Below, piece by piece: positions 18,149-50,054 of a stretch of 64,000 nt of DNA (position 1 is its first letter; the number at the start of each line of letters is the position of its first letter). The stretch covers positions 3,104,001 through 3,168,000 of the forward strand of contig OZ245842.1 of assembly GCA_965228895.1 (NCBI GenBank), written 5' to 3'. Made by a program: the position numbers and the translations under genes. Below the pieces are notes generated by a model. It worked only from the letters and a program-made list of their open reading frames with translations. It was not told the DNA's origin and did no database searches. This DNA comes from Alphaproteobacteria bacterium (GTDB lineage: Bacteria; Pseudomonadota; Alphaproteobacteria; SP197).

Positions 18149-18598
18149 ATGACGACACGACACAAGGGCGCCTGTCAGTGCGGCGCGGTGACCTATGAGG
18201 CCCAGGGCGATCCCATCATGGTCTTTGCCTGCCACTGCACGATCTGCCAGCGCCAGTCAGGCGCGGCGTTCGGCATGGCGGTGGTGTTCGACGGCGCTGA
18301 TTTCACGCTATCAGGCAAGGCGCCCGCCCATTTCGTCCGGCCCGGCCATGGCCGCGACTTCCGCTGTTACTTCTGCCCGGATTGCGGCACCCGGCTCTAT
18401 CACCAGTGGTTCACGGCCGAGGGCGACTATCCCTTCTTGAGCGTCAAGCCCGGCACGCTCGACGACACCGGCTGGGTCAAACCGGGCTGCCATGTCTGGA
18501 CCCGCCACGCGCAGCCCTGGATGCGCTTCGGCGCGGACGAGGTGGTGTTCGACGAACAGCCCGACCTCGACGCCATGCCGAAGTTCGCTGCGCCATGA
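18149..18598 (+). CDS. GFA (glutathione-dependent formaldehyde-activating/CENP-V) family protein
   Basis: GACQCGAV, CHCTICQR, FCPDCGT zinc ligands. Confidence 0.9.
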   Translation: MTTRHKGACQCGAVTYEAQGDPIMVFACHCTICQRQSGAAFGMAVVFDGADFTLSGKAPAHFVRPGHGRDFRCYFCPDCGTRLYHQWFTAEGDYPFLSVKPGTLDDTGWVKPGCHVWTRHAQPWMRFGADEVVFDEQPDLDAMPKFAAP

Positions 18599-19542
18599 GC
18601 GTCGTGCATGCCGCGCGCCCGGACCGGGTCGCGCTCGGCTTCACCATCATGACGGCGACGGCGCTGGGGCTCGCCTTCTCCGATGCCATGGTCAAACTGT
18701 TGAGCACCGACTTTTCGGTCTGGCAGGTCTTCACCGCGCGCGCATTCGTCGCGGTCCCCCTGCTTGCGGCATTGCTGATGTGGGGCGGCGGCTGGCAGGC
18801 ACTTGTGCCGCGGGCACCCGGTTGGGTGATCCTGCGCTGCCTGTGCCTGATGGCGATGTGGCTCGCTTTCTATACGGCCCTGCCCCTGCTCAACCTGGCG
18901 GTCGCGGCGGCCGGCTACTACACCGGCCCGCTCTTCATCACGCTGTTGTCGGCGCTTCTGATCGGCGAGGCGGTCGGCGCGAAACGCTGGGCCGCGATCG
19001 CGATCGGTTTCGCCGGCGTGCTCGTGATCCTGCGGCCCGGCACCGACGCGTTCAGCGTGGTCGCGCTGTTGCCGGTGCTGGCCGCCGTCTTTTACGCGCT
19101 CGCCGCCGTCATCACGCGCGCCAAATGCACCGAAGAGAACCCGCTTGCCCTGGCCTTCGCCCTCAATGTCGCGTTCCTGGTGTTCGGTCTGGTCGGCTCG
19201 ACCGCTGTCATCTTGATGGAGCCGGGCAATGTCGAAGCGACCGCCTACCGTTTCATGCTGGCCGACTGGTCGCCAATGGGCTTCAAAGAATGGGTCATCA
19301 TGGCGTTTCTGGCGGTGCTGATCGTCGGCGTCACCACCGGCACGGCCAAGGCCTATCAAAGCGCCCCCGGCGCCATCATCGCCGCATTCGACTACACCTA
19401 TCTGGTGTTCGCCACACTGTTCAGCCTGGTGATCTTCGCGGCACCGCTGGATCTCTTGACCGTCACCGGCATGGTGCTGATCACCGGCGCCGGCATGCTC
19501 GCCATCGCGCCCGAACGCCTCCTGCGCCGCGTCAGGTCTTGA
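18595..19542 (+). CDS. DMT/EamA-family transporter
   Basis: About 10 hydrophobic segments, GEAVG..RW.AI.IGFAGVLVILRPG; ATGA overlap with the GFA gene. Confidence 0.9.
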   Translation: MSVVHAARPDRVALGFTIMTATALGLAFSDAMVKLLSTDFSVWQVFTARAFVAVPLLAALLMWGGGWQALVPRAPGWVILRCLCLMAMWLAFYTALPLLNLAVAAAGYYTGPLFITLLSALLIGEAVGAKRWAAIAIGFAGVLVILRPGTDAFSVVALLPVLAAVFYALAAVITRAKCTEENPLALAFALNVAFLVFGLVGSTAVILMEPGNVEATAYRFMLADWSPMGFKEWVIMAFLAVLIVGVTTGTAKAYQSAPGAIIAAFDYTYLVFATLFSLVIFAAPLDLLTVTGMVLITGAGMLAIAPERLLRRVRS

Positions 19543-19714
19543 AAACGGAGTCCGCCGAGGCACGCGCCGACTGTTTGCTGGCGATCATCGCCTGCGCGCG
19601 TTTGATCTCGGCTTCGAGCTCGACGACATAGTCGCCCAGCGCCTCAATCGACATGCCCTCCAGCTCCTTCGTTGTTGGCTTGGGCCGGAGCGGTTCAAGA
19701 TCGTCAGTGTCCAT
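19532..19714 (-). CDS. DUF1192-family small protein
   Basis: MDTDDLEP...LEGMSIEAL...LEAEIKRA...SARASADSVFK; usual neighbour of the PIG3 oxidoreductase. Confidence 0.85.
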   Translation of the reverse strand: MDTDDLEPLRPKPTTKELEGMSIEALGDYVVELEAEIKRAQAMIASKQSARASADSVFKT

Positions 19715-22569: not shown

Positions 22570-23058
22570 CTAAGGCAGGGCGAGCCTCTCAAGCCCCGTC
22601 TTATCCAGGCTCATCAACGTCGCGACCGCGTCGTCGCGCGCCGCGCCCAGGCGGTCGTAGAAGCGGTAGGCTTCGGCGTTCTCTACCCAGACTTCCCAGA
22701 AGACGGCCTGGCAGCCGAGATCGAGGGCGTGGCGGGCGACGCCGGCCATCAGCGCCTGGCCGATGCCTCTACCCTTGGTGTCCGGCCCGACCGAGAGATC
22801 GGCGAGGTAGAGTTTGCGCCGGCCGTCGTGAAGCTGGAGCGCGCGGGTCAGGACAGCGACACCGGCGACGTGTTTGTCCATCGTCGCAACCAGCATGTCG
22901 CACCAACGGCTCGGGCCGAAAGCGAGCGGGGCGAGCGTCTCGGGTGTCCAATCCGGCGGCTCGTCATCGACGTGTCGCGCCAAGTGAGCACCGAGCGCGA
23001 TGATGGTGGGCAGGTCGGCGCGGCGGGCGCGGCGAACGTTGGGCTGTGACTTGGTCAT
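22570..23058 (-). CDS. GNAT-family acetyltransferase
   Basis: LYLADLSVGPDTKGRGIGQALM, NAEAYRFYDRLG; ATG at 23058 overlaps the stop of the upstream GNAT. Confidence 0.85.
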   Translation of the reverse strand: MTKSQPNVRRARRADLPTIIALGAHLARHVDDEPPDWTPETLAPLAFGPSRWCDMLVATMDKHVAGVAVLTRALQLHDGRRKLYLADLSVGPDTKGRGIGQALMAGVARHALDLGCQAVFWEVWVENAEAYRFYDRLGAARDDAVATLMSLDKTGLERLALP

Positions 23059-23525
23059 GAGGCGCCCTCTCCTGCCAGATCCTTCGCCATATAGACGCGG
23101 GGGAAGCCGCGTTCGGTGCGGCGGTCGGTCTCGACATAGCCGCGCCGGGTGTAGATCTCGATGTTCTCGGTCATCATCTCGTGGGTGTAGAGGTCGAGGC
23201 GGTCGTGGCCGCGCCGGGCGGCCTCGGCCTCGGCGAAGTCCATCAGGCGGCGGCCGAGGCCCGAGCCCTGAGCTTCGGGCGCGACGGCGATGTTGTCGAA
23301 CAGGATCGTGCCGTCCGGCTTTTCGATCAGGACGACCACGCCGCTGATCGTCTGGCCATCGCGCGCGACATGGACGATGTGATCGGCGATGACGGCCGCA
23401 TAATCGTCCAGCATGGGCCCCGGTTTCGTGCCGATCCGCGCGATGTAGGGGGTATAGGCGGCATTGACCACCGCCGTGATGGCGGCGGCGTCCTCGGGTC
23501 TTGCTGGTGAAAGGGTCCACGTCAT
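23055..23525 (-). CDS. GNAT-family acetyltransferase
   Basis: NIAVAPEAQGSGLGRRLM, LYTHEMMTENIEIYTRRGY. Confidence 0.9.
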   Translation of the reverse strand: MTWTLSPARPEDAAAITAVVNAAYTPYIARIGTKPGPMLDDYAAVIADHIVHVARDGQTISGVVVLIEKPDGTILFDNIAVAPEAQGSGLGRRLMDFAEAEAARRGHDRLDLYTHEMMTENIEIYTRRGYVETDRRTERGFPRVYMAKDLAGEGAS

Positions 23526-23683
23526 GGCCCTAAGCCTATGCCGGAAGCGTGAAACGGGCCATGGCCGCCATGGTTGTCACCGGCCCGCCCGTCGACTAAG
23601 TAACAGGGAGCATTCAGAGACTGCCGCGTTGGGGCTTGGCCCCTGGGTCCAGCCCACGGCGGCCGCCTCATTAAGGAGATATC

Positions 23684-24292
23684 ATGGTTCAACTGCTGAT
23701 GCCCCAGGCGACTGCCGTCTGGCTGGTCGACAACACCACCCTTTCCTTTGGGCAAATCGCCGATTTCTGCGGCATGCATCCCTTGGAAATCCAGGCGATC
23801 GCCGACGGCGAGGTCGCCGTCAATATCGTCGGCCAGGACCCGGTGACCGGCGGGCAGTTGACGCCCGAAGAGGTCGCACGCTGCGAAAAGGACCCGGACG
23901 CCCGGCTCGAGATGCGCCTGCGCGAGGATCTGCCGCAACCCAAGCAGACCAAGAGCCGCTATACGCCGGTCTCCAAGCGCCAGGACAAGCCCGACGCGAT
24001 CGAGTTCCTGGTGCGCCGGTTCCCGCAGTTATCCGATGCCCAGATCATGCGCCTGGTCGGCACCACCAAGCAGACCATCAACGCGGTGCGCGAGCACACC
24101 CACAAGAACAGCGCCAACATCGTGCCCAAGGACCCGGTGCTGCTGGGCCTTTGCAGCCGCGACAAGCTGAACACGGAAATCGACAAGGCGAACGCCAAGG
24201 TCAAGGCCAAGGAATCGGCCATGGAAAAGGCGCGCGCCGAACTGGCCGCCCGCGACGAGGCGGAGATCCAGGCGGGCGACGTCTCGTCCTAG
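23684..24292 (+). CDS. DUF1013-family conserved alphaproteobacterial protein
   Basis: LMPQATAVWLVDNTTLSFGQIADFCGMHPLEI, RYTPVSKRQDKPDAI, PKDPVLLGLCS. Confidence 0.92.
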   Translation: MVQLLMPQATAVWLVDNTTLSFGQIADFCGMHPLEIQAIADGEVAVNIVGQDPVTGGQLTPEEVARCEKDPDARLEMRLREDLPQPKQTKSRYTPVSKRQDKPDAIEFLVRRFPQLSDAQIMRLVGTTKQTINAVREHTHKNSANIVPKDPVLLGLCSRDKLNTEIDKANAKVKAKESAMEKARAELAARDEAEIQAGDVSS

Positions 24293-24304
24293 GATAGCCG
24301 TTCG

Positions 24305-25414
24305 ATGGTTGGCCGCGTTAACGACGGCCAGCCCCCTGCCACCGACGGCATGGGCGGCAAGGGCTATTACGACGACCATTCCAGCGCCCAGAAGGACGGC
24401 ATCCGCAGTCAGGAGGCACGTCTGCGCGGTGCCGTGCGCGCGCTCGACCTGAATGGTCAGGAACTGCGCGTCATCGACTACGGCTGCGGGCCCGGCCGCA
24501 ATTCCATGACCGCGTTTCATACGGTCCTGGCCGAAGTGCGGCAGCGCCGGCCCGACATTCATGTTGTCGCCATGCACAACGATCAGATCGGCAACGATTG
24601 GAACGATCTGTTCGCCAACGTGCGCGGACCCGACGGTTATCTGGACGACATCGAGACCATTCGTGTCGAGGCGGCGGTCGGCAGTTTCTTTGGTCCCGTG
24701 GCAAGCCCAGGCGTGATCGACTTCGGTATGTCGTTTGCCGCCGCCCATTGGCTCGATAGCGCGGTCCGGATGCCCGCGCCCGGCAGCCTCTTTTTCTGCG
24801 ATCTGCCGGAACCGGTCAGAAGTGACATCGCGGCAATGGCCGGGCGCAACTGGTCGGTGTTCCTGAAACAGCGTGCCCGCGAACTCAAACCCGGCGGCAT
24901 GCTGGTGATCGACATGCTGTCGGCGGTCGAGGACGCGAGCGACCCGAGCGGCGTCGCGGCCGCCGGCGCCGGTCTCTATCGCGCCATGGGAGAGATCGCC
25001 AACGGCCTTGCCGCGGAAGGCCGCATCGATCGCGGCGCCCTCGATAACTTCATCTTCCCGGTCTACTTCCGTCTGACCGGTGAGATACGCGCGCCGCTTG
25101 TCGATGACGCCGAACTGAAGAACGCCTTCGAGGTCATCGAACTGAGCAACGACCTTCTACCGATGCCGACCGAGGAAGCGCTCAAGCAGACAGGCGACGC
25201 GGCGACCTATGCCAAGGCCTATGCCGGTTTTGCCCGCGCGTTCGCCGAAGCGACGTTGAATGCCGGCCTGTTCACGCTATCGACAGCGAACGAGACCGAG
25301 GCCAAGGCCCTGGCCGATACGTTTTTCCAACGCCTTGAAACCCTGTTCGCGACCGAACCCGACAAACACCGCTTCGACCACCGTGTCGCCACGTTGGTGT
25401 TGAGACGTCTGTGA
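24305..25414 (+). CDS. SABATH-type (Methyltransf_7) SAM-dependent methyltransferase, copy 1
   Basis: GMGGKGYYDDHSSAQ, DYGCGPGRNS, HNDQIGNDWNDLF, GSFF, SFAAAHWL, FLKQRARELKPGG, FIFPVYFR. Confidence 0.85.
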   Translation: MVGRVNDGQPPATDGMGGKGYYDDHSSAQKDGIRSQEARLRGAVRALDLNGQELRVIDYGCGPGRNSMTAFHTVLAEVRQRRPDIHVVAMHNDQIGNDWNDLFANVRGPDGYLDDIETIRVEAAVGSFFGPVASPGVIDFGMSFAAAHWLDSAVRMPAPGSLFFCDLPEPVRSDIAAMAGRNWSVFLKQRARELKPGGMLVIDMLSAVEDASDPSGVAAAGAGLYRAMGEIANGLAAEGRIDRGALDNFIFPVYFRLTGEIRAPLVDDAELKNAFEVIELSNDLLPMPTEEALKQTGDAATYAKAYAGFARAFAEATLNAGLFTLSTANETEAKALADTFFQRLETLFATEPDKHRFDHRVATLVLRRL

Positions 25415-26526
25415 CGTCGGGAAGCGGCATAGGCGATCGCGATGCCTCGGCCACCGAAGGTATGGGCGGCGACGGTTACTACGACAACCATTCGCAGGTT
25501 CAAAGAGGCACGGTCATCGGACAAGCCGAGCGATTGCGCAACGCCGTGCGCCAACTCGAGCTGACGGCGGGTGGACTGCGTATCGTTGATTACGGCTGCG
25601 GTCCCGGCCGCAACTCCATGGCTGCGTTCGATACGGTGTTAAACGAAGTCGGGAAACATCGGCCCGACGTACCGGTCGTCGCCGTGCACAACGATCAGGC
25701 CGGCAATGACTGGAACGACCTGTTCGCCAACATCCGAGGGCCCGATGGGTATCTGCGCGATCACCCCTCCGTCCGCGTCGAGGCGTCCGTCGGTAGTTTC
25801 TATGAACCCGTTGCTAGCGCCGGCCAGGTTGATCTCGGTATGTCGTTCATGGCCGTTCACTGGCTCAACGGCACCGTCCGCATGTCGTCGCCCGGCACAC
25901 TGTTCTTCTGCGATGTCGAAGGACCAGCGCGAAAGGAACTTGCCGAGCGCGCCGAGCGCGACTGGGCAGCGTTCTTTACCGCGCGGGCCAGCGAGATAAG
26001 GTCCGGCGGCTGGCTGGTCATCGAGAGCCTGTCGTCAGTACCGGATCCCGACGACCCCAGCGGCTTGCTGGCGGCGGGTCGATGGAACTATCGCGCCTGC
26101 TACCGGATCGCCAAAGCGATGGCTGAGGAAGGTCTGATCCAAAACGATCTGCTCGATCATTTCGTCTTCCCCGTCTACTTCCGTGAAGAGCACGAGGTGT
26201 GCGCGCCGTTCGAGCGCGATGGTGATCTTAGAGACGTTTTCGAGATCGTCGAGGTTGTCAATGAGCTCTACGCGACGCCGTTCGAAGAAACCTTCAAACA
26301 GGACGGCGATGCCGCGGCGTATGCATCGGCCTATGTCGGATACGTCCGCGCTTACTCAGAGTCCACGCTGCGCAGCAGCCTATTCGGGGGATTGGCAAAC
26401 AGCGTAGACGAGGTCAACGCGTTGACAGAGACGTTCTACGATCGCCTGGAACAACTGTATCGAGACGAACCGGGCCGCCACCCATCGGAAACCCAGTCGA
26501 TGACCCTGGTGCTGCGGCGGCGATGA
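25411..26526 (+). CDS. SABATH-type SAM-dependent methyltransferase, copy 2
   Basis: GMGGDGYYDNHSQVQ, DYGCGPGRNS, HNDQAGNDWNDLF, GSFY, SFMAVHWL; GTGA overlap with copy 1. Confidence 0.85.
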   Translation: MTSGSGIGDRDASATEGMGGDGYYDNHSQVQRGTVIGQAERLRNAVRQLELTAGGLRIVDYGCGPGRNSMAAFDTVLNEVGKHRPDVPVVAVHNDQAGNDWNDLFANIRGPDGYLRDHPSVRVEASVGSFYEPVASAGQVDLGMSFMAVHWLNGTVRMSSPGTLFFCDVEGPARKELAERAERDWAAFFTARASEIRSGGWLVIESLSSVPDPDDPSGLLAAGRWNYRACYRIAKAMAEEGLIQNDLLDHFVFPVYFREEHEVCAPFERDGDLRDVFEIVEVVNELYATPFEETFKQDGDAAAYASAYVGYVRAYSESTLRSSLFGGLANSVDEVNALTETFYDRLEQLYRDEPGRHPSETQSMTLVLRRR

Positions 26527-27638
26527 CCACAGCCGCCGACGACAAACCGCCACGCACACAGGCCACCGACGGGATGGGCGGTCAGGGCTTTTACGACGGC
26601 CACTCGCGCGAGCAGGCCAAGGTGATCAGGGGTGAAGCCGATCGCCTGCACCACGTGGCGGCGCAGCTTGATGCGTCGGGCCCGGAACTGCGCATCGTCG
26701 ACTATGGTTGCGGGCCCGGCCGCAATTCGATGAAGGCGTTTCACACAGTGCTCGACACGGTGCGGCGGAACAAAACCGACTTGCCCATCGTCGCGGTCCA
26801 CAACGATCAGGTCAGCAACGACTGGAACGATCTTTTCGCCAACGTCAGGGGACCGGGCGGTTATCTGCGCGGCGATCCCTACGTTCGTGTCGAAGCCTCG
26901 ATCGGCAGCTTCTACGACAGTGTCGCAAGCGATGGCACCGTCGACCTCGGCATGTCGTTTGTTGCGGCCCACTGGCTTAGCAACGTTGTCCGCCTGTCCA
27001 CACCGGGAACGCTGTTCTTCGCCGATCTGACCGGGCAGGCGCGCCAAGAGATGGCCGCTCATGCCGACAAGGACTGGACATCATTCCTGCGTCATCGCGC
27101 GCAGGAGATCAAACCGGGCGGCTGGCTCGTTGTGCACGTGTTTTCGTCGGTGCCGGACACTGATGATCCCAGCGGCTTGCGGGCCGCGGGCCGCCATCTG
27201 TTCCGTGCGTTCTGGCGGATCGCCGATGGCATGGCCGGCGACGGTATGATCGACCGGGACCTGCTCGACAGGTTCGTCTTCCCCGTTTACTTCCGCGAAG
27301 AAGATGAGGTGCGCGCACCGCTTGAACGCGAGCAGGACCTTTGCCAAGCGTTCGACATTGTCGAACTCAGCAGCGAACTCATCCCTTCTCCCGCCCTGGA
27401 AGAGCTTGATCGAACCGGCGACGTCAGCGCTTATGCGGTTTCCTATGCCCAACACTGCCGGGCCTTTACGGAGTCGGCGTTCAGCAATGGCTTGTTTGCG
27501 GTGACGGCGTCGAGCCCGGCCGAAGCCGATCGTCTGGTCGATGACTTCTATGGTCGGCTCGAAACCCTGTTTCACGACGAACCCCGCGCGCATGACTCCG
27601 AACTCCAATCGATGACACTGGTGCTGAGGCGGCGGTAG
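26523..27638 (+). CDS. SABATH-type SAM-dependent methyltransferase, copy 3
   Basis: GMGGQGFYDGHSREQ, DYGCGPGRNS, HNDQVSNDWNDLF, GSFY, SFVAAHWLS; ATGA overlap with copy 2. Confidence 0.85.
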   Translation: MTTAADDKPPRTQATDGMGGQGFYDGHSREQAKVIRGEADRLHHVAAQLDASGPELRIVDYGCGPGRNSMKAFHTVLDTVRRNKTDLPIVAVHNDQVSNDWNDLFANVRGPGGYLRGDPYVRVEASIGSFYDSVASDGTVDLGMSFVAAHWLSNVVRLSTPGTLFFADLTGQARQEMAAHADKDWTSFLRHRAQEIKPGGWLVVHVFSSVPDTDDPSGLRAAGRHLFRAFWRIADGMAGDGMIDRDLLDRFVFPVYFREEDEVRAPLEREQDLCQAFDIVELSSELIPSPALEELDRTGDVSAYAVSYAQHCRAFTESAFSNGLFAVTASSPAEADRLVDDFYGRLETLFHDEPRAHDSELQSMTLVLRRR

Positions 27639-27670
27639 TCTAGAACCGGCAAAAGGGAGCGCAGACATCC

Positions 27671-28777
27671 ATGGCAACCGGCACCGACAATGGCAGCAAA
27701 GCGACCGACGGCATGGGCGGCGAAGGCTATTACGACAGCCATTCGGCGATCCAGGCGGGCGCCGTCGAACAACAGGCGGCACGACTGCGCCGCGCCGTCG
27801 CGGCGCTGAATCTCGACGGGCCGGAACTCACCATCATTGATTACGGTTGCGGTCCCGGCCGCAATTCGATGGCGGCGTTTCGCGCGGTGCTCGACGAGGT
27901 TCGCCAGCGCCGGGCCGACCTGCCCATCGTCGCCGTGCACACCGATCAGATCAGCAACGATTGGAACGACCTGGTCGCGAACATCCAGGGGCCTGGCGGT
28001 TATCTGAACGATGTCGAGGGTGTGCGCGTCGTTGTTTCGGCCGGCAGCTTTTTCGACACCGTCGCCAGCGATCATTCGATCGACCTCGGCATGTCGTTCA
28101 TGGCCTCACACTGGCTCGACGGTCCCATCAGCCTGCCCTCACCCGGCACGCTCTTCTTCGCCGACATGACGGGCACGGCACGCGAGGAGGTCGCGGCCAT
28201 CGCCGACGAGCACTGGACGCGCTTCATGCACCACCGTGCGCGCGAGGTCAAACCGGGCGGCTGGCTTGTCTTCGAAGCGATGTCGGCGATCAAAGACCCC
28301 ACCGACCGGAGCGGCCTCGCCGCCGGCGGCCACCGTCTTTACCGCGCCTTCTGGCAAATCGCCGACGGCATGGCGCAGGAGGGGCTGGTCGAGCGCGCCC
28401 ATCTCGACGCCTTTGTCTTCCCGATCTATTTCCGCGAGCTCCATGAGATCCGTGCGCCGCTGGAACGCGAAGCCGACCTGAAGGCCGCGTTCGAGATCGT
28501 CGAATTGGAAAGCGAGCTGATCCCCAACCCCTATGTGGAGGCGTGGCGCCGCGACGGTGACGATACGGCTTATGCCAAAGCCTATGCCGCATTCGCGCGC
28601 GGCTTTTCGGAGTCCGCCTTCCGCAACGGGCTGTTCAACCTGTCGGCCAATTCCGACAACAGCGCCGATGCCCTGACCGAGACGTTCTACACGCGCCTTG
28701 AAGACGTGTTCCGCGCCGAACCCGGCGACCACATCTTCGACAACCACTCGATGACGCTGGTGCTAAGGCGGCGTTAA
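27671..28777 (+). CDS. SABATH-type SAM-dependent methyltransferase, copy 4
   Basis: GMGGEGYYDSHSAIQ, DYGCGPGRNS, HTDQISNDWNDL, GSFF, SFMASHWL; own RBS AGGGAG. Confidence 0.85.
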   Translation: MATGTDNGSKATDGMGGEGYYDSHSAIQAGAVEQQAARLRRAVAALNLDGPELTIIDYGCGPGRNSMAAFRAVLDEVRQRRADLPIVAVHTDQISNDWNDLVANIQGPGGYLNDVEGVRVVVSAGSFFDTVASDHSIDLGMSFMASHWLDGPISLPSPGTLFFADMTGTAREEVAAIADEHWTRFMHHRAREVKPGGWLVFEAMSAIKDPTDRSGLAAGGHRLYRAFWQIADGMAQEGLVERAHLDAFVFPIYFRELHEIRAPLEREADLKAAFEIVELESELIPNPYVEAWRRDGDDTAYAKAYAAFARGFSESAFRNGLFNLSANSDNSADALTETFYTRLEDVFRAEPGDHIFDNHSMTLVLRRR

Positions 28778-29628
28778 ACGTACGCCATATCGTACGCGTC
28801 CTGCCGCCTGACCACGTGACCGATCGACGGCAGCGGGAAGTGGATGGTCATGACCTTCGTGTCGGTCTCACAGTGTGTATCGAGAAAACGCCGGCGCGTC
28901 GCGCGTGATTGTTCGATGTCGTAGTCGAAATGCGGACTCCAGTCGGGTTGGGCGAGCTGCAGGGGGCTGTGAATGAGGTCGCCGGTGACGACGCCGTGGG
29001 CCGATCCCGATTTCAGGTGGACGGCGACGTGGCCCGCCGTGTGGCCCAGCGTCGGTTCGAGCCACACCTCGTCGTCCAGCGCGTAGTCGGTGTCGACCAG
29101 CACGGCCTGCTTGGCGTCGAGCACCGGCTGCACGTTTTCGGCGAAGACGGCCGTGCCCTCGTCAGCGGCGGCGGCGACTTCGTCACGTGCCAGGATGTAT
29201 TTGGCGTTGGGAAATGTCGGCACCCAACGCCCGTCGACGAGACGCGTGTTCCAGCCTGAGTGGTCGAGATGCAGGTGCGTACAGAAGACGAAGTCGATCT
29301 CTTCGGGCGCAACACCGGTCGCCACGAGATTGCGCAGCCAGGTCTCGTCGCGCCGGTCCTGCCATGCAGGAATGCCGTCATAGGACTTGCGGCAGCCAAC
29401 GCAGGTGTCGATCAGGATGGTGTGGTGGCGCGTGCGCACCAGATAAGACTGGACGGTCAGCAGCATCTCGCCGGTCTTGGGATCGAGCGCGTCGGGTTCC
29501 AGCCAGGACCGGTAGGGTTCGACCGCGTCGGGCGTCGCCTCGTGAAAGAAGTCCGGCAGCACGAACGGCGCCTTCTCCATTTCGATGACGCGATCGATGG
29601 CGATCTCGCCCAAATTCAGCGTTGTCAA
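28774..29628 (-). CDS. MBL-fold metallo-hydrolase
   Basis: THLHLDHSGWNT, GHTAGH, GDLIHSP; TTG start after GGGGAGGGG. Confidence 0.88.
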   Translation of the reverse strand: MTTLNLGEIAIDRVIEMEKAPFVLPDFFHEATPDAVEPYRSWLEPDALDPKTGEMLLTVQSYLVRTRHHTILIDTCVGCRKSYDGIPAWQDRRDETWLRNLVATGVAPEEIDFVFCTHLHLDHSGWNTRLVDGRWVPTFPNAKYILARDEVAAAADEGTAVFAENVQPVLDAKQAVLVDTDYALDDEVWLEPTLGHTAGHVAVHLKSGSAHGVVTGDLIHSPLQLAQPDWSPHFDYDIEQSRATRRRFLDTHCETDTKVMTIHFPLPSIGHVVRRQDAYDMAYV

Positions 29629-29677
29629 AGGCCCCTCCCCTGACGCGTTGTCGAAGCGATGATGCTGTCGTCGTCGC

Positions 29678-30262
29678 TCAGTCGGCCTCACCGCCCTCTG
29701 CGGTTTCCGGTAGCATGTGTCGTTTGATGAGCCCGATCTGGCACATGCCGAACGCCATGGTCAGTAAGACGATGCCGAAGGTCTTGAACCCGACCCAGAT
29801 ATCGGTCGACTGGGTGCGCCACACCACCTCGTTAATACCGGCCATGACCAGAAAGAAGATCGCGAAGCGCATCGAAAGCTTGCGCCAGCCGTCATCGTCC
29901 AATTGCAGCGCCGCGCCCATCAGCGGTTTCAGCAACGACTTGCCCATCAGCAGGCCGCCGAACAGCACGGCAGCAAACAGCGCCTGGATAATTGTCGGCT
30001 TGAGTTTGATGAAGGTCTCGTCGTTCAGCCACAAGGTCAGTCCGCCGAAGATGCCGACGATGATTGCGGTGACCAGCGGCAGCATCGGGATGTGGCGCGC
30101 GATAGCGTAGGAAAGCGCCAGGGCGATGCCGGTCGCGGTCATCAAGGCGGCGGTCGCCACCATCAGATCGCCGAGCACATAGGCAACGACAAAGACGACC
30201 AGCGGGCCGTATTCGGTGACCGGCTTCAGCCAGGCCGGTTGTTTTGGTTTTTCTTGCGTCAT
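29678..30262 (-). CDS. yciB: Inner membrane protein YciB (septation protein A/IspZ)
   Basis: EYGPLVVF, FGGLTLWLNDETFIKLKPTII, NEVVWRTQSTDIWVGFKTFG. Confidence 0.92.
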   Translation of the reverse strand: MTQEKPKQPAWLKPVTEYGPLVVFVVAYVLGDLMVATAALMTATGIALALSYAIARHIPMLPLVTAIIVGIFGGLTLWLNDETFIKLKPTIIQALFAAVLFGGLLMGKSLLKPLMGAALQLDDDGWRKLSMRFAIFFLVMAGINEVVWRTQSTDIWVGFKTFGIVLLTMAFGMCQIGLIKRHMLPETAEGGEAD

Positions 30263-30318
30263 GGTCCGCACAATATTGGAGACTGGGGCGTCGCGGGCAA
30301 GGATTGATCAGCCCACGA

Positions 30319-31825: not shown

Positions 31826-32722
31826 ATGACGTCGCAAAGCCAGACGCCGGCGACGGACGCCCATCATCTGCGCGGCATCGGCTGGATCGTCGTCTCGACC
31901 CTGTGTTTCGCCACCGAAGACAGCATCGCCAAGTGGCTGGGCAGCGAGATCGACCCGATCCAGGTTCTGTTTGTCTACGGCCTCGTGTTGTTGGCCTGGG
32001 CCGTGGCGGGCGCGCTTAGGCGCGGTGGCGCGGCGGCGTTGGTGCATCTGCGCGTACGCCGACCCTGGCTTTTGATCCTGCGCTCGCTGGTGTTGCTCGG
32101 CACGTTCCTGGCGTTCATCTATGGCGTCGTCCTGCTGCCTCTGGCCGATGCGGTCGCGATCAGCTTCACGACGCCGCTGCTTGCGACCGTGCTCGCCGCG
32201 GTTGTTCTGAAAGAACAGGTTGCGTTGCGGCAATGGCTGGCGGTCGCCACCGGGCTCGTCGCCGTCGTCTGGATGGTGCAGCCGGGCGCCGGCGTCATCT
32301 CGGCCGGTGCCGCATGGATGTTGTTGAGCGCGCTGCTCGCCGCCATCGACATCATGCTGACGCGCGTTCTGACGCGCAGTGAGAGCAACACGACGATCGT
32401 GCTCGCCCTTGCCCTGACCTTCGTTGTGGTTTTGGGCGCGGCGGTGCCGTTCGTGTGGCAACCGCTGACCCTCATCGATATCGGCTTGATTATCGCCATG
32501 GGCACCGCCGGCATGATGGCGCAGGCAAGCTTCACCCAGGCAAACCGGCGCGCGCCGCCGCAGGTCTTGGCGCCGTTCGACTATCTGATGCTGGTCTGGG
32601 GTGTCTTCTTCGGCTTCGTCATCTGGCGTGAGTGGCCGACGCCGGAGGTGATGGCCGGCGCCGTTGTGTTGATCGCCGTCGGCCTCTATCTGGCGCGCGC
32701 CGAGACCCGCGTCCAGGCCTAG
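31826..32722 (+). CDS. DMT/EamA-family transporter
   Basis: About 10 TMs, LPLADAVAISFTTPL...LKEQV, APFDYLMLVW. Confidence 0.9.
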   Translation: MTSQSQTPATDAHHLRGIGWIVVSTLCFATEDSIAKWLGSEIDPIQVLFVYGLVLLAWAVAGALRRGGAAALVHLRVRRPWLLILRSLVLLGTFLAFIYGVVLLPLADAVAISFTTPLLATVLAAVVLKEQVALRQWLAVATGLVAVVWMVQPGAGVISAGAAWMLLSALLAAIDIMLTRVLTRSESNTTIVLALALTFVVVLGAAVPFVWQPLTLIDIGLIIAMGTAGMMAQASFTQANRRAPPQVLAPFDYLMLVWGVFFGFVIWREWPTPEVMAGAVVLIAVGLYLARAETRVQA

Positions 32723-32753
32723 ATCGCCGCCAACAACGCTTGCTGCGGATTGT

Positions 32754-33461
32754 TTGCAATCGCGCTATAACCCGGCTTGCGGACCGGGCGGGCTCCGCGT
32801 TGCTGGGAAGAAGATCATCGTTGGCTACAAGGTCTCCGACACGTTTGCGCTGCGTTACGCAGCGGTCGTGTCGATCATCGCAAGTTTCTACCGATCGGAA
32901 GCGCGCAAAGGCGGGCCGACCGCCGACATGCTGGCAGACGTCGCGCGCGAACTGGAGCGACTGGCGCCGCCGGAAGCGCCCGAACCATCCCGCCTGCCCG
33001 GCGCCAAACATCTGGCGGCCGCGCTGCCGGAAGCACTGGATGGTCCGATGGCGTCGGTCGTGCACGGCTTCATGGCGATCGAACCGGAGTGCCCGTGGTT
33101 CCAGACGGAGCACTACCGCGCGTCCCTGGGCGACGACTACATGGACAACTACGGCTACGTCACCCTGGTCGGCGACCGCGCGATCCTGAAACACGATCGC
33201 ATCGCCTGCGGCTTCTTCGTCATCGGGCCGGGACGGCACTACCCCGAGCATCACCATGAAGCCGAAGAGATCTATCACCCGCTGTCCGGCGATACGTTGT
33301 GGAGCCAGAATAGCGGGCCTGGGACGGCGCGCGCGATTGGTGAGGCGGTCCACAATCCGCCGTGGCAGCTCCACGAGATGACGACGCGCGAGACGCCGCT
33401 GTTTGCGCTTTATTGTTGGCGCGGGCGCGTGGCCGATCAGGCGCAGTTGACGGATCCCTGA
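32754..33461 (+). CDS. DMSP lyase-family cupin (DddQ/DddL-like); start uncertain, possibly GTG at 32868
   Basis: GFFVIGPGRHYPEHHHEAEEIYHPLSG and HNPPWQLHEMTTRETPLFALYCWRG. Confidence 0.7.
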   Translation: MQSRYNPACGPGGLRVAGKKIIVGYKVSDTFALRYAAVVSIIASFYRSEARKGGPTADMLADVARELERLAPPEAPEPSRLPGAKHLAAALPEALDGPMASVVHGFMAIEPECPWFQTEHYRASLGDDYMDNYGYVTLVGDRAILKHDRIACGFFVIGPGRHYPEHHHEAEEIYHPLSGDTLWSQNSGPGTARAIGEAVHNPPWQLHEMTTRETPLFALYCWRGRVADQAQLTDP

Positions 33462-33483
33462 ACCCCAACGGACGGAGGTGCCC

Positions 33484-34293
33484 ATGCAGACGGGAACCTT
33501 GAAGACGGACGTCGCCGACGTTTTCTACCTTCAGCAGGGCGCAGGCCCCGACATCGTCTGGATACCCGGCGGCGATCAGACGGGAGAGGAATGGGCCGAA
33601 CAGATGGCCGCCTTCCCCGACTACCGCAACACCAGCTTCGATCCGCGCGGCGCTGGCAAGACCGTGGTCCATGAACCCACGCCATGGCCGATCGCGTCGT
33701 TCGCCAAGGACTGCGCGGCGCTGATCCGCGAGGTCTGCACCCCACCGGTCAATCTGGTCGGTCTCTCGATGGGCGCGCTGATCGTGCAAGAGATGGCGCT
33801 CGCTTATCCGGAACTGGTGCGGGTCGCGATCGCCATGGGAACGTCCGGCAGCAAGGCCGGTTTCATCCATGAATGGGAGGATGCGGAGATCCGGTTCCGC
33901 GAATCCGGCGGCACCCTGCCGCCCGACTTCGCCATGGCCCACTACGCGCTCCTGATGTACCCGTCCGAAGTGCTGGGCGACGACGCGCTGTGGGAAAAGG
34001 TGAAGCCGATCGTCGCGGCGGCCTATCGCGAACGCGATGGCGACATGCTGGCCGCGCAGTGGCAGGCGTGCCTGGACTATTCGGCCATGGACCGCCTGCC
34101 CGACTGCACGCGCCCGCTGCACGTCATCGGTTTCGGTCAGGACATGCAGACTCCGCCGGCGCGCGGCAAGCTGGTCGCCGAAGCGGCCAAGGACGGTCAC
34201 TTCCATTTGCTGGAAGGCCTCGGCCACTGTTCGCTGTTCGGGCACAAACCGGAAGTCGTCAGTGCGAAGATCCGCGAGATCATCGAGACCTGA
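33484..34293 (+). CDS. Alpha/beta-fold hydrolase
   Basis: FDPRGAG, nucleophile elbow GLSMG, C-terminal GLGH; RBS GGAGG. Confidence 0.88.
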   Translation: MQTGTLKTDVADVFYLQQGAGPDIVWIPGGDQTGEEWAEQMAAFPDYRNTSFDPRGAGKTVVHEPTPWPIASFAKDCAALIREVCTPPVNLVGLSMGALIVQEMALAYPELVRVAIAMGTSGSKAGFIHEWEDAEIRFRESGGTLPPDFAMAHYALLMYPSEVLGDDALWEKVKPIVAAAYRERDGDMLAAQWQACLDYSAMDRLPDCTRPLHVIGFGQDMQTPPARGKLVAEAAKDGHFHLLEGLGHCSLFGHKPEVVSAKIREIIET

Positions 34294-48897: not shown

Positions 48898-49001
48898 TTT
48901 AGGGGGACCGGCCATGCGCGTTCAGCCCACCGTTTCCGATGCAACGCCGAGGCGGTCTCATCATCCTGCACCAGCCAACCTGCCTTCAGGGAGTTAAAGA
49001 C

Positions 49002-50054
49002 ATGATCACGACATCCCGACGCCGGGTTCTCGGTACACTCGCGAGCACGGCTGCCATCGCGCTGCCGTCGACAATGGCTTCACCATCCGTCGCGCGAGCC
49101 AGCAATCGCAACGCCGATAATCTGTCACCCGCGGTCGATCCGATGGAGACCTTCGCGGGGACCTGGCCGTTCCAAGCCCGCTACGACACCGCGTCCGGAT
49201 TCGCCATGCATTACATCGACGAGGGCCACGGCGACGACACCCTGCTCCTGCTGCATGGCGAACCGACCTGGGGTTATCTCTTCCGTCAGCAGATACCGTT
49301 GTGGGCGCGCCAGGCGCGCGTCATCGCGGTCGACCACATGGGCTTCGGCAAGAGCGCGACACCAGGCGACAGGACCTATTGGCTGCAGGACCATATCGAC
49401 AATCTCGAGCGTTTCGTGGTGTCACAAGACCTGCGCGACCTGACGCTTGTCATGCACGATTTCGGCGGTCCGGTCGGCATGGGACTGGCGATCCGCCACC
49501 CCGACCGGATCAAACGCATTGTGTCAATCAACGGCCCGACACCGCTCGGACAAACGGATCTGATCGACCGGCTCACGGCCAATGCCGCCATCGCGCCGTG
49601 GTTCCAGTGGATCTTGAAGGCAGAAGCCGACGGCACGCTGGAAAACGTGCTGGGCCAGCTCGATTACAACATCCTGTCGACCCTGAAACTTAACGGGTTC
49701 GAGCGTAACGAGATCATCACCGATACATGGCTTGCAGCCTATCGCGCGCCCTTCCCGACCCCTGCTCAAGCGGCAGGCGCGATCGGCTGGGCCAAGGGTT
49801 TTGCCACCGGCGCCCACGTTTTCGAAACGCCGGATGCAGCCGCCGCCGCAGAACTGGCGACAAAACCCGCGCTGGCACTTTGGGGCGAGGCCGACCGAAC
49901 CCTACACGCCGACCATTTCCTGCCGCTGTTCCGTCAGGCTTTTCCAGAAGGCCGCGTACACCGCCTTGCCGGCGCCGGGCACTACAGCCCCGAAGACGCG
50001 CCAGGCGATGTCGGCCGGCTTGTCGCCGATTTCATCGGCACCATACCGTCCTAA
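49002..50054 (+). CDS. Tat-signal alpha/beta hydrolase, haloalkane dehalogenase-like
   Basis: SRRRVL twin-Arg leader, MHYIDEG, HGEPTWGYLFR, HDFGG, WGEAD, GHYSPED. Confidence 0.85.
   Translation: MITTSRRRVLGTLASTAAIALPSTMASPSVARASNRNADNLSPAVDPMETFAGTWPFQARYDTASGFAMHYIDEGHGDDTLLLLHGEPTWGYLFRQQIPLWARQARVIAVDHMGFGKSATPGDRTYWLQDHIDNLERFVVSQDLRDLTLVMHDFGGPVGMGLAIRHPDRIKRIVSINGPTPLGQTDLIDRLTANAAIAPWFQWILKAEADGTLENVLGQLDYNILSTLKLNGFERNEIITDTWLAAYRAPFPTPAQAAGAIGWAKGFATGAHVFETPDAAAAAELATKPALALWGEADRTLHADHFLPLFRQAFPEGRVHRLAGAGHYSPEDAPGDVGRLVADFIGTIPS

Follow-up and report, generated by a model that had tools for sequence, protein, structure and literature searches.

Four diverged SABATH-family methyltransferase genes form one packed array in an alphaproteobacterial genome

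Work on the small-molecule carboxyl methyltransferases known as SABATH enzymes has dealt almost wholly with plants, and one preprint terms SABATH methyltransferases "plant-specific". Among the solved SABATH structures that we found, mycobacterial FAMT was the only bacterial member. The presence of four such genes in tandem in an alphaproteobacterium raises the question of what these enzymes do, and whether they perform one activity four times or several different ones. The genes (MT1–MT4) lie in the window, i.e., the whole 64,000-nucleotide stretch of DNA that was analysed, together with the following neighbours:

23684-24292, plus strand: trcR, transcriptional cell-cycle regulator (PF06242, Pfam E 1.4e-56), core gene directly upstream of MT1
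24305-25414, plus strand: MT1, 369 aa, ATG start (PF03492 E 5e-27, 95.4 bits)
25411-26526, plus strand: MT2, 371 aa, GTG start (PF03492 E 2e-28)
26523-27638, plus strand: MT3, 371 aa, ATG start (PF03492 E 1.3e-31)
27671-28777, plus strand: MT4, 368 aa, ATG start (PF03492 E 1.9e-25)
28774-29691, minus strand: MBL-fold hydrolase, lactonase/methyl-parathion-hydrolase type (PF00753 E 3.4e-18)
29678-30271, minus strand: ispA/yciB, intracellular septation protein A (PF04279 E 8.8e-61), core gene

The original prediction described four adjacent same-strand ORFs of 368–371 aa with two translationally coupled junctions, and the coordinates and start-to-start spacings in the ORF list (1106, 1112 and 1148 bp) were exactly as claimed. 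Both coupled junctions were read directly in the sequence, with the MT1 stop and MT2 start overlapping as GTGA (25411-25414) and the MT2 stop and MT3 start as ATGA (26523-26526). Between MT3 and MT4 lie 32 nt, and MT4 has its own GGGAG ribosome-binding site ahead of the ATG; the gap from the trcR stop to the MT1 start is 12 nt. Sequence scans revealed no terminator-like site in the trcR–MT1 gap or at any junction of the array, and no sigma-70-like promoter in 23300-29900. Because the promoter scan was empty, the transcription unit is drawn from spacing alone; on this basis MT1–MT4 are probably co-transcribed as one tight unit, and transcription may possibly read through into the array from trcR. 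Of the sequencing runs listed as containing the stretch, none is recorded as RNA. All four frames are open, with no stops within any match. The MT genes have a G+C content of 61–65% and GC3 of 0.72–0.82, near the values of the flanking core genes. Antisense ORFs overlapping the array are what a G+C content of 63% commonly produces.

All four proteins matched the PF03492 (Methyltransf_7/SABATH) profile at 90.2–110.5 bits (E 1.9e-25 to 1.3e-31), far above chance and above the gathering cut-off of 29.8 bits; MT1–MT3 cover positions 13–335 of the 335 in the profile and MT4 covers 14–300. These scores bear out the prediction of four intact family members, and the eight motifs quoted in it were all found in the translations and their alignment, where their correspondence to the SABATH signatures was confirmed. 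Pairwise identity among the four proteins is 52–60% (52–55% to MT1, 53–60% to MT3). The AlphaFold2 model of MT3, the sole copy modelled (pLDDT 94.8, pTM 0.92), superposes on SABATH structures, with a class I methyltransferase core and a helical cap. When this model was compared with the PDB by Foldseek, the top match was FAMT in complex with SAH and octanoate (5f2k; TM 0.87/0.91, rmsd 2.6 Å). The nine other SABATH entries listed, all from plants, gave TMq values of 0.71–0.81 (TM 0.71–0.86 for the plant enzymes), and the next class I methyltransferases reached TMq 0.44 at most. In a PDB search with a profile built from 116 sequences, FAMT scored E 2.7e-94 (residues 19–363), followed by IAMT at 1.5e-49 and SAMT at 1.1e-48. 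The sequence profile and the predicted fold thus both place mycobacterial FAMT nearest among solved and characterised relatives, with the plant SABATH enzymes second, and the label "plant-type" given to the array originally does not hold.

FAMT (EC 2.1.1.15; PDB 5f2k, 5f2n, 5f2o) is, like MT1–MT4, a bacterial protein, its length is comparable (368 aa), and its SAM motifs, Gln/Trp carboxylate clamp and C-terminal helical cap align with theirs; its primary papers are those of Nawabi in 2011 and of Petronikolou and Nair in 2015. However, identity is only 23–24%, FAMT has Gln154 before the Trp where MT1–MT4 have His, further differences fall at residues mapping near the pocket, and FAMT is known as a single gene, in contrast to the four tandem paralogues found here. 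Because of the low identity and the replacement of Gln154 by His, fatty acids, including the octanoate and 3-hydroxydecanoate named as FAMT substrates in the PDB titles, are not implied for MT1–MT4. Orthology to FAMT was rejected on the same two features, His being present in all 112 tree rows of the four lineages.

The plant SABATH carboxyl methyltransferases (Clarkia SAMT, 1m6e; Arabidopsis IAMT, 3b5i; the loganic acid enzyme, 6c8r; the geniposidic acid enzyme, 8wwq) share the Pfam family and fold of the array (TMq 0.73–0.76, profile E 1e-45 to 1e-49). The listed motifs align in the same order, the equivalents of Gln25 and Trp151 are conserved in MT1–MT4, and the His-Trp pair of MT1–MT4 is that of IAMT and geniposidic acid methyltransferase. 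They differ from the array in their ~20% identity, in insertions that are missing from the bacterial clade, in origin and in genomic context. The plant SABATH N-methyltransferases (tea CkTcS, 6lyh, and CkTbS, 6lyi; coffee XMT and DXMT, 2eg5 and 2efj) have the fold of MT3 (TMq 0.71–0.81) and act as several paralogues in series in one pathway; however, CkTcS and CkTbS carry Thr at the carboxylate-binding position where MT1–MT4 carry Gln, and XMT and DXMT were the weakest of 11 PDB sequence matches to the array profile. Another group, the OPCMT-like microbial carboxyl methyltransferases, is likewise bacterial and small-molecule-directed, with five paralogues, MnMT2–6, in M. neoaurum. As set out in a section of PMC10193983, these enzymes belong to a different family, <12% identical to SABATH, and are monomers of ~300 aa with landmark residues Thr20 and Tyr194; SABATH enzymes are described there as homodimeric. 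An LCM-type/OPCMT-like assignment was rejected for MT1–MT4, which match PF03492 and, among Pfam hits with E ≤ 1, no LCM-type family.

Retention of the SABATH SAM motifs was judged by D-x-G-C-x-x-G-x-N, an acidic residue in the N-D-L/Q motif and G-S-F-Y/F. The SAM-binding segments DYGCGPGRNS, H(N/T)DQxxNDWNDL and GSF(F/Y) are invariant in MT1–MT4 and align with the motifs of FAMT, SAMT and IAMT. Across the 112 rows of the four lineages, Gln29, His148, Trp149, Asp58 and Asp93 (MT1 numbering) are 100% conserved, and conservation is complete or nearly so at Gly60, Gly62, Ser127 and Phe128. According to a section of PMC10193983, this Gln and Trp (SAMT Gln25 and Trp151) guide the carboxylate in SABATH carboxyl methyltransferases. 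FAMT, SAMT and geniposidic acid methyltransferase likewise carry Gln where they align with Gln29, whereas both tea N-methyltransferases have Thr there. Because the SAM motifs and the Gln/Trp pair are retained, MT1–MT4 are most likely active carboxyl O-methyltransferases. N-methylation appears disfavoured, since the carboxylate-binding Gln is kept in all four; the SABATH N-methyltransferase type was set aside on the two tea sequences aligned, and with it the caffeine-like N-methylation pathway suggested in the original prediction. We infer O- rather than N-methylation. MT1–MT4 would be cytosolic S-adenosylmethionine-dependent small-molecule enzymes in which the conserved Gln and Trp would hold the deprotonated carboxylate beside the SAM methyl group, each yielding a neutral methyl ester and SAH.

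The age of the copies was examined in a tree of 151 rows, 112 of which fall into the four lineages (MT1, 55; MT2, 6; MT3, 3; MT4, 48). The alphaproteobacterial clade accounts for 116 or more of the tree rows and for at least 162 proteins in the database (E ≤ 1e-5), and single-copy kin of the MT1 and MT4 lineages occur in other alphaproteobacterial MAGs. In the careful tree, 12 single-copy genes from other taxa form the sister group of the genus MT4 sequences (support 100/99), and four others that of its MT1 sequences (93/84). MT3 has as relatives P0006 (91%), P0007 (79%) and P0005, the last through its second half (80%). A single genus-only clade, as expected from the local duplication implied in the original prediction, which had named non-monophyletic copies as evidence against itself, was rejected by the AU test (delta lnL 130, p 2.6e-99), the p-value being weakened by the definition of the tested group after the quick tree had been inspected. 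Judged from these relationships, the four genes are not a recent local amplification but old paralogues that came, or stayed, together as one packed unit.

Among the sampled genomes, the array was found in this genus only, with four copies here and three in two sister species (G001 and G002), in which MT3 was not found; the order MT1-MT2-(MT3)-MT4 is kept in all three. The predicted four-copy array stands for this genome, and both other species of the genus carry the three-copy version, a point against the original interpretation. Few of the sampled relatives have PF03492, and at every other place found there was one copy, with MT1-type or MT4-type genes alone in 16 other species genomes and both types together in none seen. 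The array occupies a variable slot bordered by trcR on the left and ispA on the right. A single copy of trcR was present in 25/25 relatives searched, and ispA lies downstream of it, at variable distance, in 6/8 loci from three other genera. No conserved neighbour hinting at a substrate was found, the array-flanking genes being absent from the 25 largest neighbour clusters of 40 other loci and the window, and Pfam analysis of the window neighbours revealed no biosynthetic genes beside the array. Literature searches with SABATH-directed terms returned no description of a bacterial SABATH array, in agreement with the earlier statement that no characterised bacterial operon of this kind was known.

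The orthologues in the three species are under purifying selection (dN/dS 0.14–0.19 for MT1, MT2 and MT4). The MT1 orthologues of the sister species, located after trcR, are 79% identical (dN/dS 0.16–0.18), those of MT2 75% (0.16–0.19) and those of MT4 83–86% (0.14–0.16); dS between the copies is 0.8–1.7. Lineage-specific fixed residues were identified at MT1 positions 145, 165, 203, 205, 222, 225, 309, 312, 318, 357, 359 and 361, and are kept over 48–55 rows in the two large lineages, MT1 and MT4. By sequence alignment, positions 145, 205 and 225 correspond to SAMT Tyr147, Leu210 and Trp226, which we take to line the SAMT substrate pocket; this mapping combines the alignment with a list of SAMT pocket residues and is not based on coordinates. 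Since lineage-specific fixed residues map near the pocket, the array most likely spans four different carboxylic acids or acid size classes rather than one activity quadrupled, and we infer distinct specificities for MT1–MT4, although drift along long branches could explain the lineage-specific sites instead. Default guesses for the substrates would be acids of the FAMT type, either medium-chain fatty acids or hydroxy acids, or else aromatic acids of small size. Overall, we consider it rather probable that MT1–MT4 belong to a FAMT-like bacterial branch of the SABATH/Methyltransf_7 family and are carboxyl O-methyltransferases, old paralogues gathered in one packed unit and acting on different acids.

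Other explanations were weighed against this reading. Sequential action of the four enzymes on one molecule (a polycarboxylate or a multi-N/O scaffold), in the manner of the caffeine pathway, would agree with the overlapping stop and start codons, with the gene order conserved in three species and with the distinct lineage residues at positions mapping near the pocket. However, the MT1-type and MT4-type genes found alone in 16 other species genomes, never seen together, can therefore work without the others; MT3 is missing from two of the three species, the conserved Gln disfavours N-methylation and biosynthetic genes are not co-located, and we regard sequential action as unlikely. No more likely, in our judgment, is local amplification of one gene, with the copies either functionally equivalent, as redundant dosage, or decaying, as a relic. 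Same-strand tandem paralogues are the usual signature of amplification, but identity of only 52–60%, the dS values between copies, the rejection of a within-genus origin, selection on MT1, MT2 and MT4, the open frames, and residues conserved throughout the two large lineages all argue against it. We consider it highly improbable that the genes were recently transferred from a plant or alga for the modification of host hormones (salicylate, jasmonate, IAA): most of the characterised PF03492 enzymes are plant methyltransferases for hormones and volatiles, and the pocket His-Trp is as in IAMT and the geniposidic acid enzyme, yet bacterial FAMT is closer than any plant structure, the 120 homologues listed are labelled either as bacterial MAGs or as unnamed metagenomes and never with a plant name, and base composition is near that of the flanking core genes. 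Hormones themselves may still be among the substrates, as the original prediction suggested.

The MBL-fold hydrolase next to MT4 could be linked with the methyl esters that MT1–MT4 would make, with N-acyl amino acid esters involved. The two genes overlap tail to tail at their stops (TTAA), and the hydrolase shares the genus-specific slot with the array in 3/3 species. Its nearest relatives are lactone- and ester-cleaving enzymes: it matches the PDB entries 4o98 and 4le6, organophosphorus hydrolases (E 1.3e-19 and 1.5e-19), and the NCBIfam AidB lactonase model was matched at E 8e-18. In addition, N-acyl alanine methyl esters occur in marine Roseobacter-group bacteria, with the synthase gene not known according to a section of PMC11580390. 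On the other hand, an MBL homologue lies beside an MT homologue in 0/40 other loci (L015–L054), a 1.5-kb low-G+C insert separates the hydrolase from the array in G001, and the NCBIfam scores are far under the cut-off. Furthermore, because the genes are convergent, the hydrolase and the array do not form one operon, and such a link seems to us decidedly unlikely.

The locus is a real expansion of a known enzyme family whose members here are uncharacterised, and it reveals no new mechanism. What it adds is an alphaproteobacterial clade split into subfamilies with distinct pocket-mapped residues, gathered in one genus into an array of three to four genes. More tentatively, and with considerable doubt, the array may be an "esterification panel" in which each subfamily methylates another class of carboxylate from the habitat or the cell, such as fatty acids (medium-chain or hydroxylated), aromatic acids of algal or plant origin, or N-acyl amino acids. 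If so, charged acids would be converted to neutral, membrane-permeant or volatile methyl esters serving as signals, as allelochemicals or as a detoxification route, and the clade would provide candidate genes for bacterial methyl-ester natural products without known methylating enzymes. Such a panel would, moreover, mirror in bacteria the tandem SABATH expansions seen in plants, where such arrays are common as described in part of PMC12019346. The array offers a compact, testable set for asking what bacteria methyl-esterify. It can also be mined for new biocatalysts that make esters in water, and it gives a bacterial case against which the evolution of SABATH specificity after duplication can be compared.

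The original prediction placed four adjacent methyltransferase ORFs, here MT1–MT4 (the array), on the plus strand of the window, and ORF listing together with junction reading bore out their coordinates, lengths, spacing and both overlaps. All sequence motifs quoted for them are likewise present in the MT1–MT4 translations. The array and its surroundings are arranged as follows:

Further upstream of trcR: ruvAB, yebC, a LysR regulator and a zinc alcohol dehydrogenase gene
23684–24292, plus strand: trcR, directly upstream of MT1 (PF06242, E 1.4e-56)
24305–25414, plus strand: MT1, ORF of 369 aa, co-directional with MT2–MT4
25411–26526, plus strand: MT2, ORF of 371 aa, co-directional with MT1, MT3 and MT4
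26523–27638, plus strand: MT3, ORF of 371 aa, co-directional with MT1, MT2 and MT4
27671–28777, plus strand: MT4, ORF of 368 aa, co-directional with MT1–MT3
28774–29691, minus strand: gene of a metallo-beta-lactamase-fold (MBL) hydrolase
29678–30271, minus strand: ispA
Beyond ispA, in this order: a LysR regulator, a GNAT acetyltransferase and an EamA transporter

The starts of the four genes lie 1106, 1112 and 1148 bp apart. MT1 and MT2 overlap by 4 nt (GTGA, 25411–25414), as do MT2 and MT3 (ATGA, 26523–26526), while MT3 and MT4 are separated by 32 nt with GGGAG upstream of MT4; the trcR stop is followed by the MT1 start after 12 nt. Between 23300 and 29900, 0 sigma-70-like sites were found against 1.4 expected from shuffles, and 8 terminator-like sites against 5.0 expected, 0 of them at gene junctions. 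Because the genes overlap or are closely spaced and terminator-like sites are absent at their junctions, MT1–MT4 would probably be carried on one transcript. The translations can be aligned end to end with 135 invariant columns, and MT2, MT3 and MT4 are 52–55% identical to MT1.

Profile searches confirmed the predicted family, since all four proteins scored 90–110 bits against PF03492 (Methyltransf_7, 'SAM dependent carboxyl methyltransferase'), well over the gathering cut-off of 29.8, and covered nearly the whole profile. No NCBIfam model matched MT1–MT4 significantly, which leaves the clade without a curated bacterial name. When the PDB was searched with a profile of the four sequences, the mycobacterial fatty acid O-methyltransferase FAMT (5f2k) ranked on top (E 3.4e-25), followed by plant SABATH enzymes; with a 116-sequence profile the gap widened, FAMT reaching 2.7e-94 against 1.5e-49 and 1.1e-48 for the plant carboxyl methyltransferases IAMT and SAMT. 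MT3 was modelled with AlphaFold2 from the 116-sequence alignment (mean pLDDT 94.8, pTM 0.92), and a Foldseek comparison of this model with the PDB gave the same ranking: the best match was FAMT with SAH and octanoate (TM 0.87/0.91, rmsd 2.6 Å), nine plant SABATH entries had TMq values of 0.71–0.81, and unrelated class I methyltransferases did not exceed 0.44. MT1–MT4 are thus genuine SABATH-fold enzymes and share a bacterial branch with FAMT, and since both profile and fold rank FAMT above the plant enzymes, the 'plant-type' label of the original prediction overstated that affinity and is wrong.

In SABATH carboxyl methyltransferases the substrate carboxylate is guided by a conserved Gln25 and a Trp, according to PMC10193983, where this Trp is printed as Trp115; the aligned SAMT Trp is residue 151 in our profile alignment. 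The enzymes described in that paper belong to another family of microbial carboxyl methyltransferases; MnMT1, a SABATH-like mycobacterial protein, is reported there to be inactive on the steroid acids of the study. Our alignments revealed Gln at the Gln25 position in FAMT, SAMT, a geniposidic acid methyltransferase and MT1–MT4, and Thr in both aligned tea N-methyltransferases. In the 112 rows that make up the four paralogue lineages, conservation is 100% for Gln29, His148, Trp149, Asp58 and Asp93 (numbered as in MT1) and full or almost full for GSF and the other residues of the glycine-rich SAM motif. Because the Gln, the Trp and the SAM-motif residues are conserved, we infer that MT1–MT4 are active carboxyl O-methyltransferases, neither N-methyltransferases nor dead copies.

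The age of the copies was assessed with two trees. A quick tree of 151 proteins combined MT1–MT4 of the window with database homologues of full length and with ORFs of the loci retrieved; it omitted database proteins outside 340–410 aa, 11 rows that matched another row exactly over their last 330 residues, locus L013 (the same place as L014), and loci L051, L053 and L054, whose methyltransferase frame was interrupted or did not reach 250 aa. Its core clade comprised 116 rows, with 55 in the MT1 lineage, 48 in MT4, 6 in MT2, 3 in MT3 and a further 4-row group. In a careful tree (LG+C20) of 47 rows hand-picked from the 151, the MT2, MT3 and MT4 types grouped together (31 rows, support 100/99); the genus MT4 group had as its sister 12 genes that occur in other taxa as single copies (100/99), and the genus MT1 group had 4 others (93/84). 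Forcing the 19 genus-level sequences, a group named after the quick tree had been seen, into one clade cost 130 log-likelihood units and was rejected by the AU test (p-AU 2.6e-99). By the placement and this rejection, the copies do not stem from recent local amplification; either the paralogues are older than the genus, or genes have passed from the genus into other lineages. Local duplication of the copies was thereby rejected, as they do not form a genus-only clade, an outcome that the original prediction had named as counting against it, while the array itself stands.

Comparison of the genus's three species gave dN/dS values of 0.16–0.18 for MT1, 0.16–0.19 for MT2 and 0.14–0.16 for MT4, similar to the 0.08–0.17 of the flanking MBL and ispA genes; dS between paralogues was 0.8–1.7. 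Near-fixed residues differ by lineage at MT1 positions 145, 165, 203, 205, 222, 225, 309, 312, 318, 357, 359 and 361. At position 145, MT1 has Ala/Gly, MT2 and MT4 have Met and MT3 has Val; at position 205, MT1 and MT2 share Leu, MT4 has Met and MT3 has Phe. Through the profile alignment, positions 145, 205 and 225 map to SAMT Tyr147, Leu210 and Trp226, which we take to line the salicylate pocket. This lineage-specific pattern is compatible with four different specificities, short of proof.

The window's genome encodes a fifth, distant PF03492 paralogue (G000:C1:5455904–5456983; L005 1444–2592) of 382 aa (E 4.5e-35), which is 31–33% identical to the array copies and is flanked by genes for a divergent MFS transporter and for a malic enzyme. 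A 371-aa ORF at 48939–50054, considered as a further copy, is an alpha/beta hydrolase (PF00561, E 1e-26) unrelated to the array. Matches at E ≤1e-10 were found in 5 of 41 relatives' genomes, the window's own counted, and the other 36 had none at this threshold. Both other species of the genus carry three array copies (MT1, MT2 and MT4 types) and a single distant type, and in a different genus of the family two genomes carry the distant type only, as a single gene. An even sample of the class gave matches (E ≤1e-20) in 11 of 400 other genomes, all single, 26–32% identical and none of them a core-clade member. The PF03492 model found single copies in 4 of another 400 genomes and none in 14 control genomes. 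A scan of a species-level genome collection, which rested on two peptide patterns so that copies can be missed, returned 41 loci. Three copies occurred only in L014, on the same contig as the array (L062) of the sister species G001; in L030 an MT4-type gene lies beside a distant-type gene, three loci are one gene in two pieces, and the remaining loci are single. In this two-pattern scan, MT1-type and MT4-type genes were not seen together in any of the 16 species carrying either.

A large protein database contained 162 homologues at E ≤1e-5, and none of the 120 listed had a functional name beyond generic methyltransferase labels; a 50%-identity library gave 1449 clusters at E ≤1e-3. MT3 has just three close relatives, among them P0005, a 631-aa protein on a 9684-bp metagenome contig whose first part resembles MT2 (78% identity) and whose second part resembles MT3 (80%). 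The fusion probably arose through a frameshift or an error of assembly where the stop and start overlap, and the fused call shows that MT2 and MT3 are adjacent in another relative too. Shared longest_contig values suggest putative further arrays, with four methyltransferase genes on a 7148-bp contig and three on a 7421-bp contig. A metagenome scan yielded 11 loci on short contigs, 9 with one match each and 2 with none at E 1e-8, and no arrays among them. A mobile origin by plasmid was rejected, since homologues occurred in just 3 of 72,556 plasmid records, at 24–31% identity.

The array occupies a slot bordered by core genes. All 25 relatives searched (25 of 25) have one copy of trcR, and comparison of the window's trcR–ispA interval (24293–29677) with loci L055–L064 showed that three further genera of the family share the backbone adh-(gnat)-trcR ... 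ispA, preceded by yebC wherever the compared stretch extends that far; ispA was not found in the stretch compared in 2 of 8 loci of other genera. The interval measures ~0.4 kb in one genome (L059) and 2–7.6 kb, filled with unrelated genes, in other genera, and among the loci compared the array with the MBL gene fills it in the window's genus only. Because the content of the slot varies and the array is confined to the genus, the array is cargo in a variable slot within a core chromosomal region. Its G+C content (61–65%) and GC3 (0.72–0.82) are slightly under those of its neighbours. In G001 a 1.5-kb stretch of 52.5% G+C lies between MT4 and the MBL gene (L062 6881–8440, G001:C492), and its minus strand has a single open frame that runs 412 codons from stop to stop; the stretch looks like a foreign insertion. 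A remnant of a further methyltransferase copy in this gap was unconvincing (best tblastn E 0.004 over 41 residues).

Several other ORFs in the window were noted. Upstream, divergent from trcR, 22570–23520 (minus strand) encodes a 316-aa protein with a GNAT domain at C-terminal residues 191–292 and no family match for its N-terminal ~190 residues; other genera have shorter GNAT matches at this position. Three long overlapping ORFs of 378–386 aa span both strands at 18382–19631, and several of 235–341 aa, also on both strands, lie at 32619–34293, where the EamA transporter gene is the neighbour on one side and a gene with a GNAT domain on the other. Pfam scans of two ORFs in the former region, one per strand, and of two minus-strand ORFs in the latter gave no match.

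Gene context gave no clue to the substrate. The MBL gene is downstream of and convergent with the array, its stop overlapping that of MT4, and its product is nearest to quorum-quenching lactonases and methyl-parathion/organophosphorus hydrolases, far under the family cut-offs. A link to methyltransferase function was rejected, as an MBL homologue stood beside a methyltransferase homologue in 0 of 40 other loci. When all ORFs of at least 70 aa within 6 kb of methyltransferase genes were clustered for these 40 loci and the window, the biggest cluster covered 14 loci at scattered distances, and the genes flanking the window's array were in none of the 25 largest. Neighbour families are not conserved around the homologues in other genomes, so the substrate cannot be read from context.

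FAMT, the closest relative with a characterised activity, takes medium-chain and 3-hydroxy fatty acids as substrates according to PDB titles and secondary passages in PMC4275033; however, identity to it is only 23–24% and its pocket residues differ, so its substrates cannot be transferred and those of the array are a matter for experiment. The literature searched, in which some queries were swamped by the author name 'Sabath' or by general terms, contained no description of a bacterial SABATH array. As a speculative lead, the array might serve N-acyl alanine methyl ester synthesis, for which, according to PMC11580390, candidate synthase genes have so far not been found. MT1–MT4 would be four soluble SAM-dependent carboxyl O-methyltransferases, each turning a different carboxylic acid into its own methyl ester. 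The novelty claimed for the array was overstated; the array is a well-preserved, genus-restricted tandem set of four old paralogues of a known enzyme family, in an uncharacterised bacterial clade.
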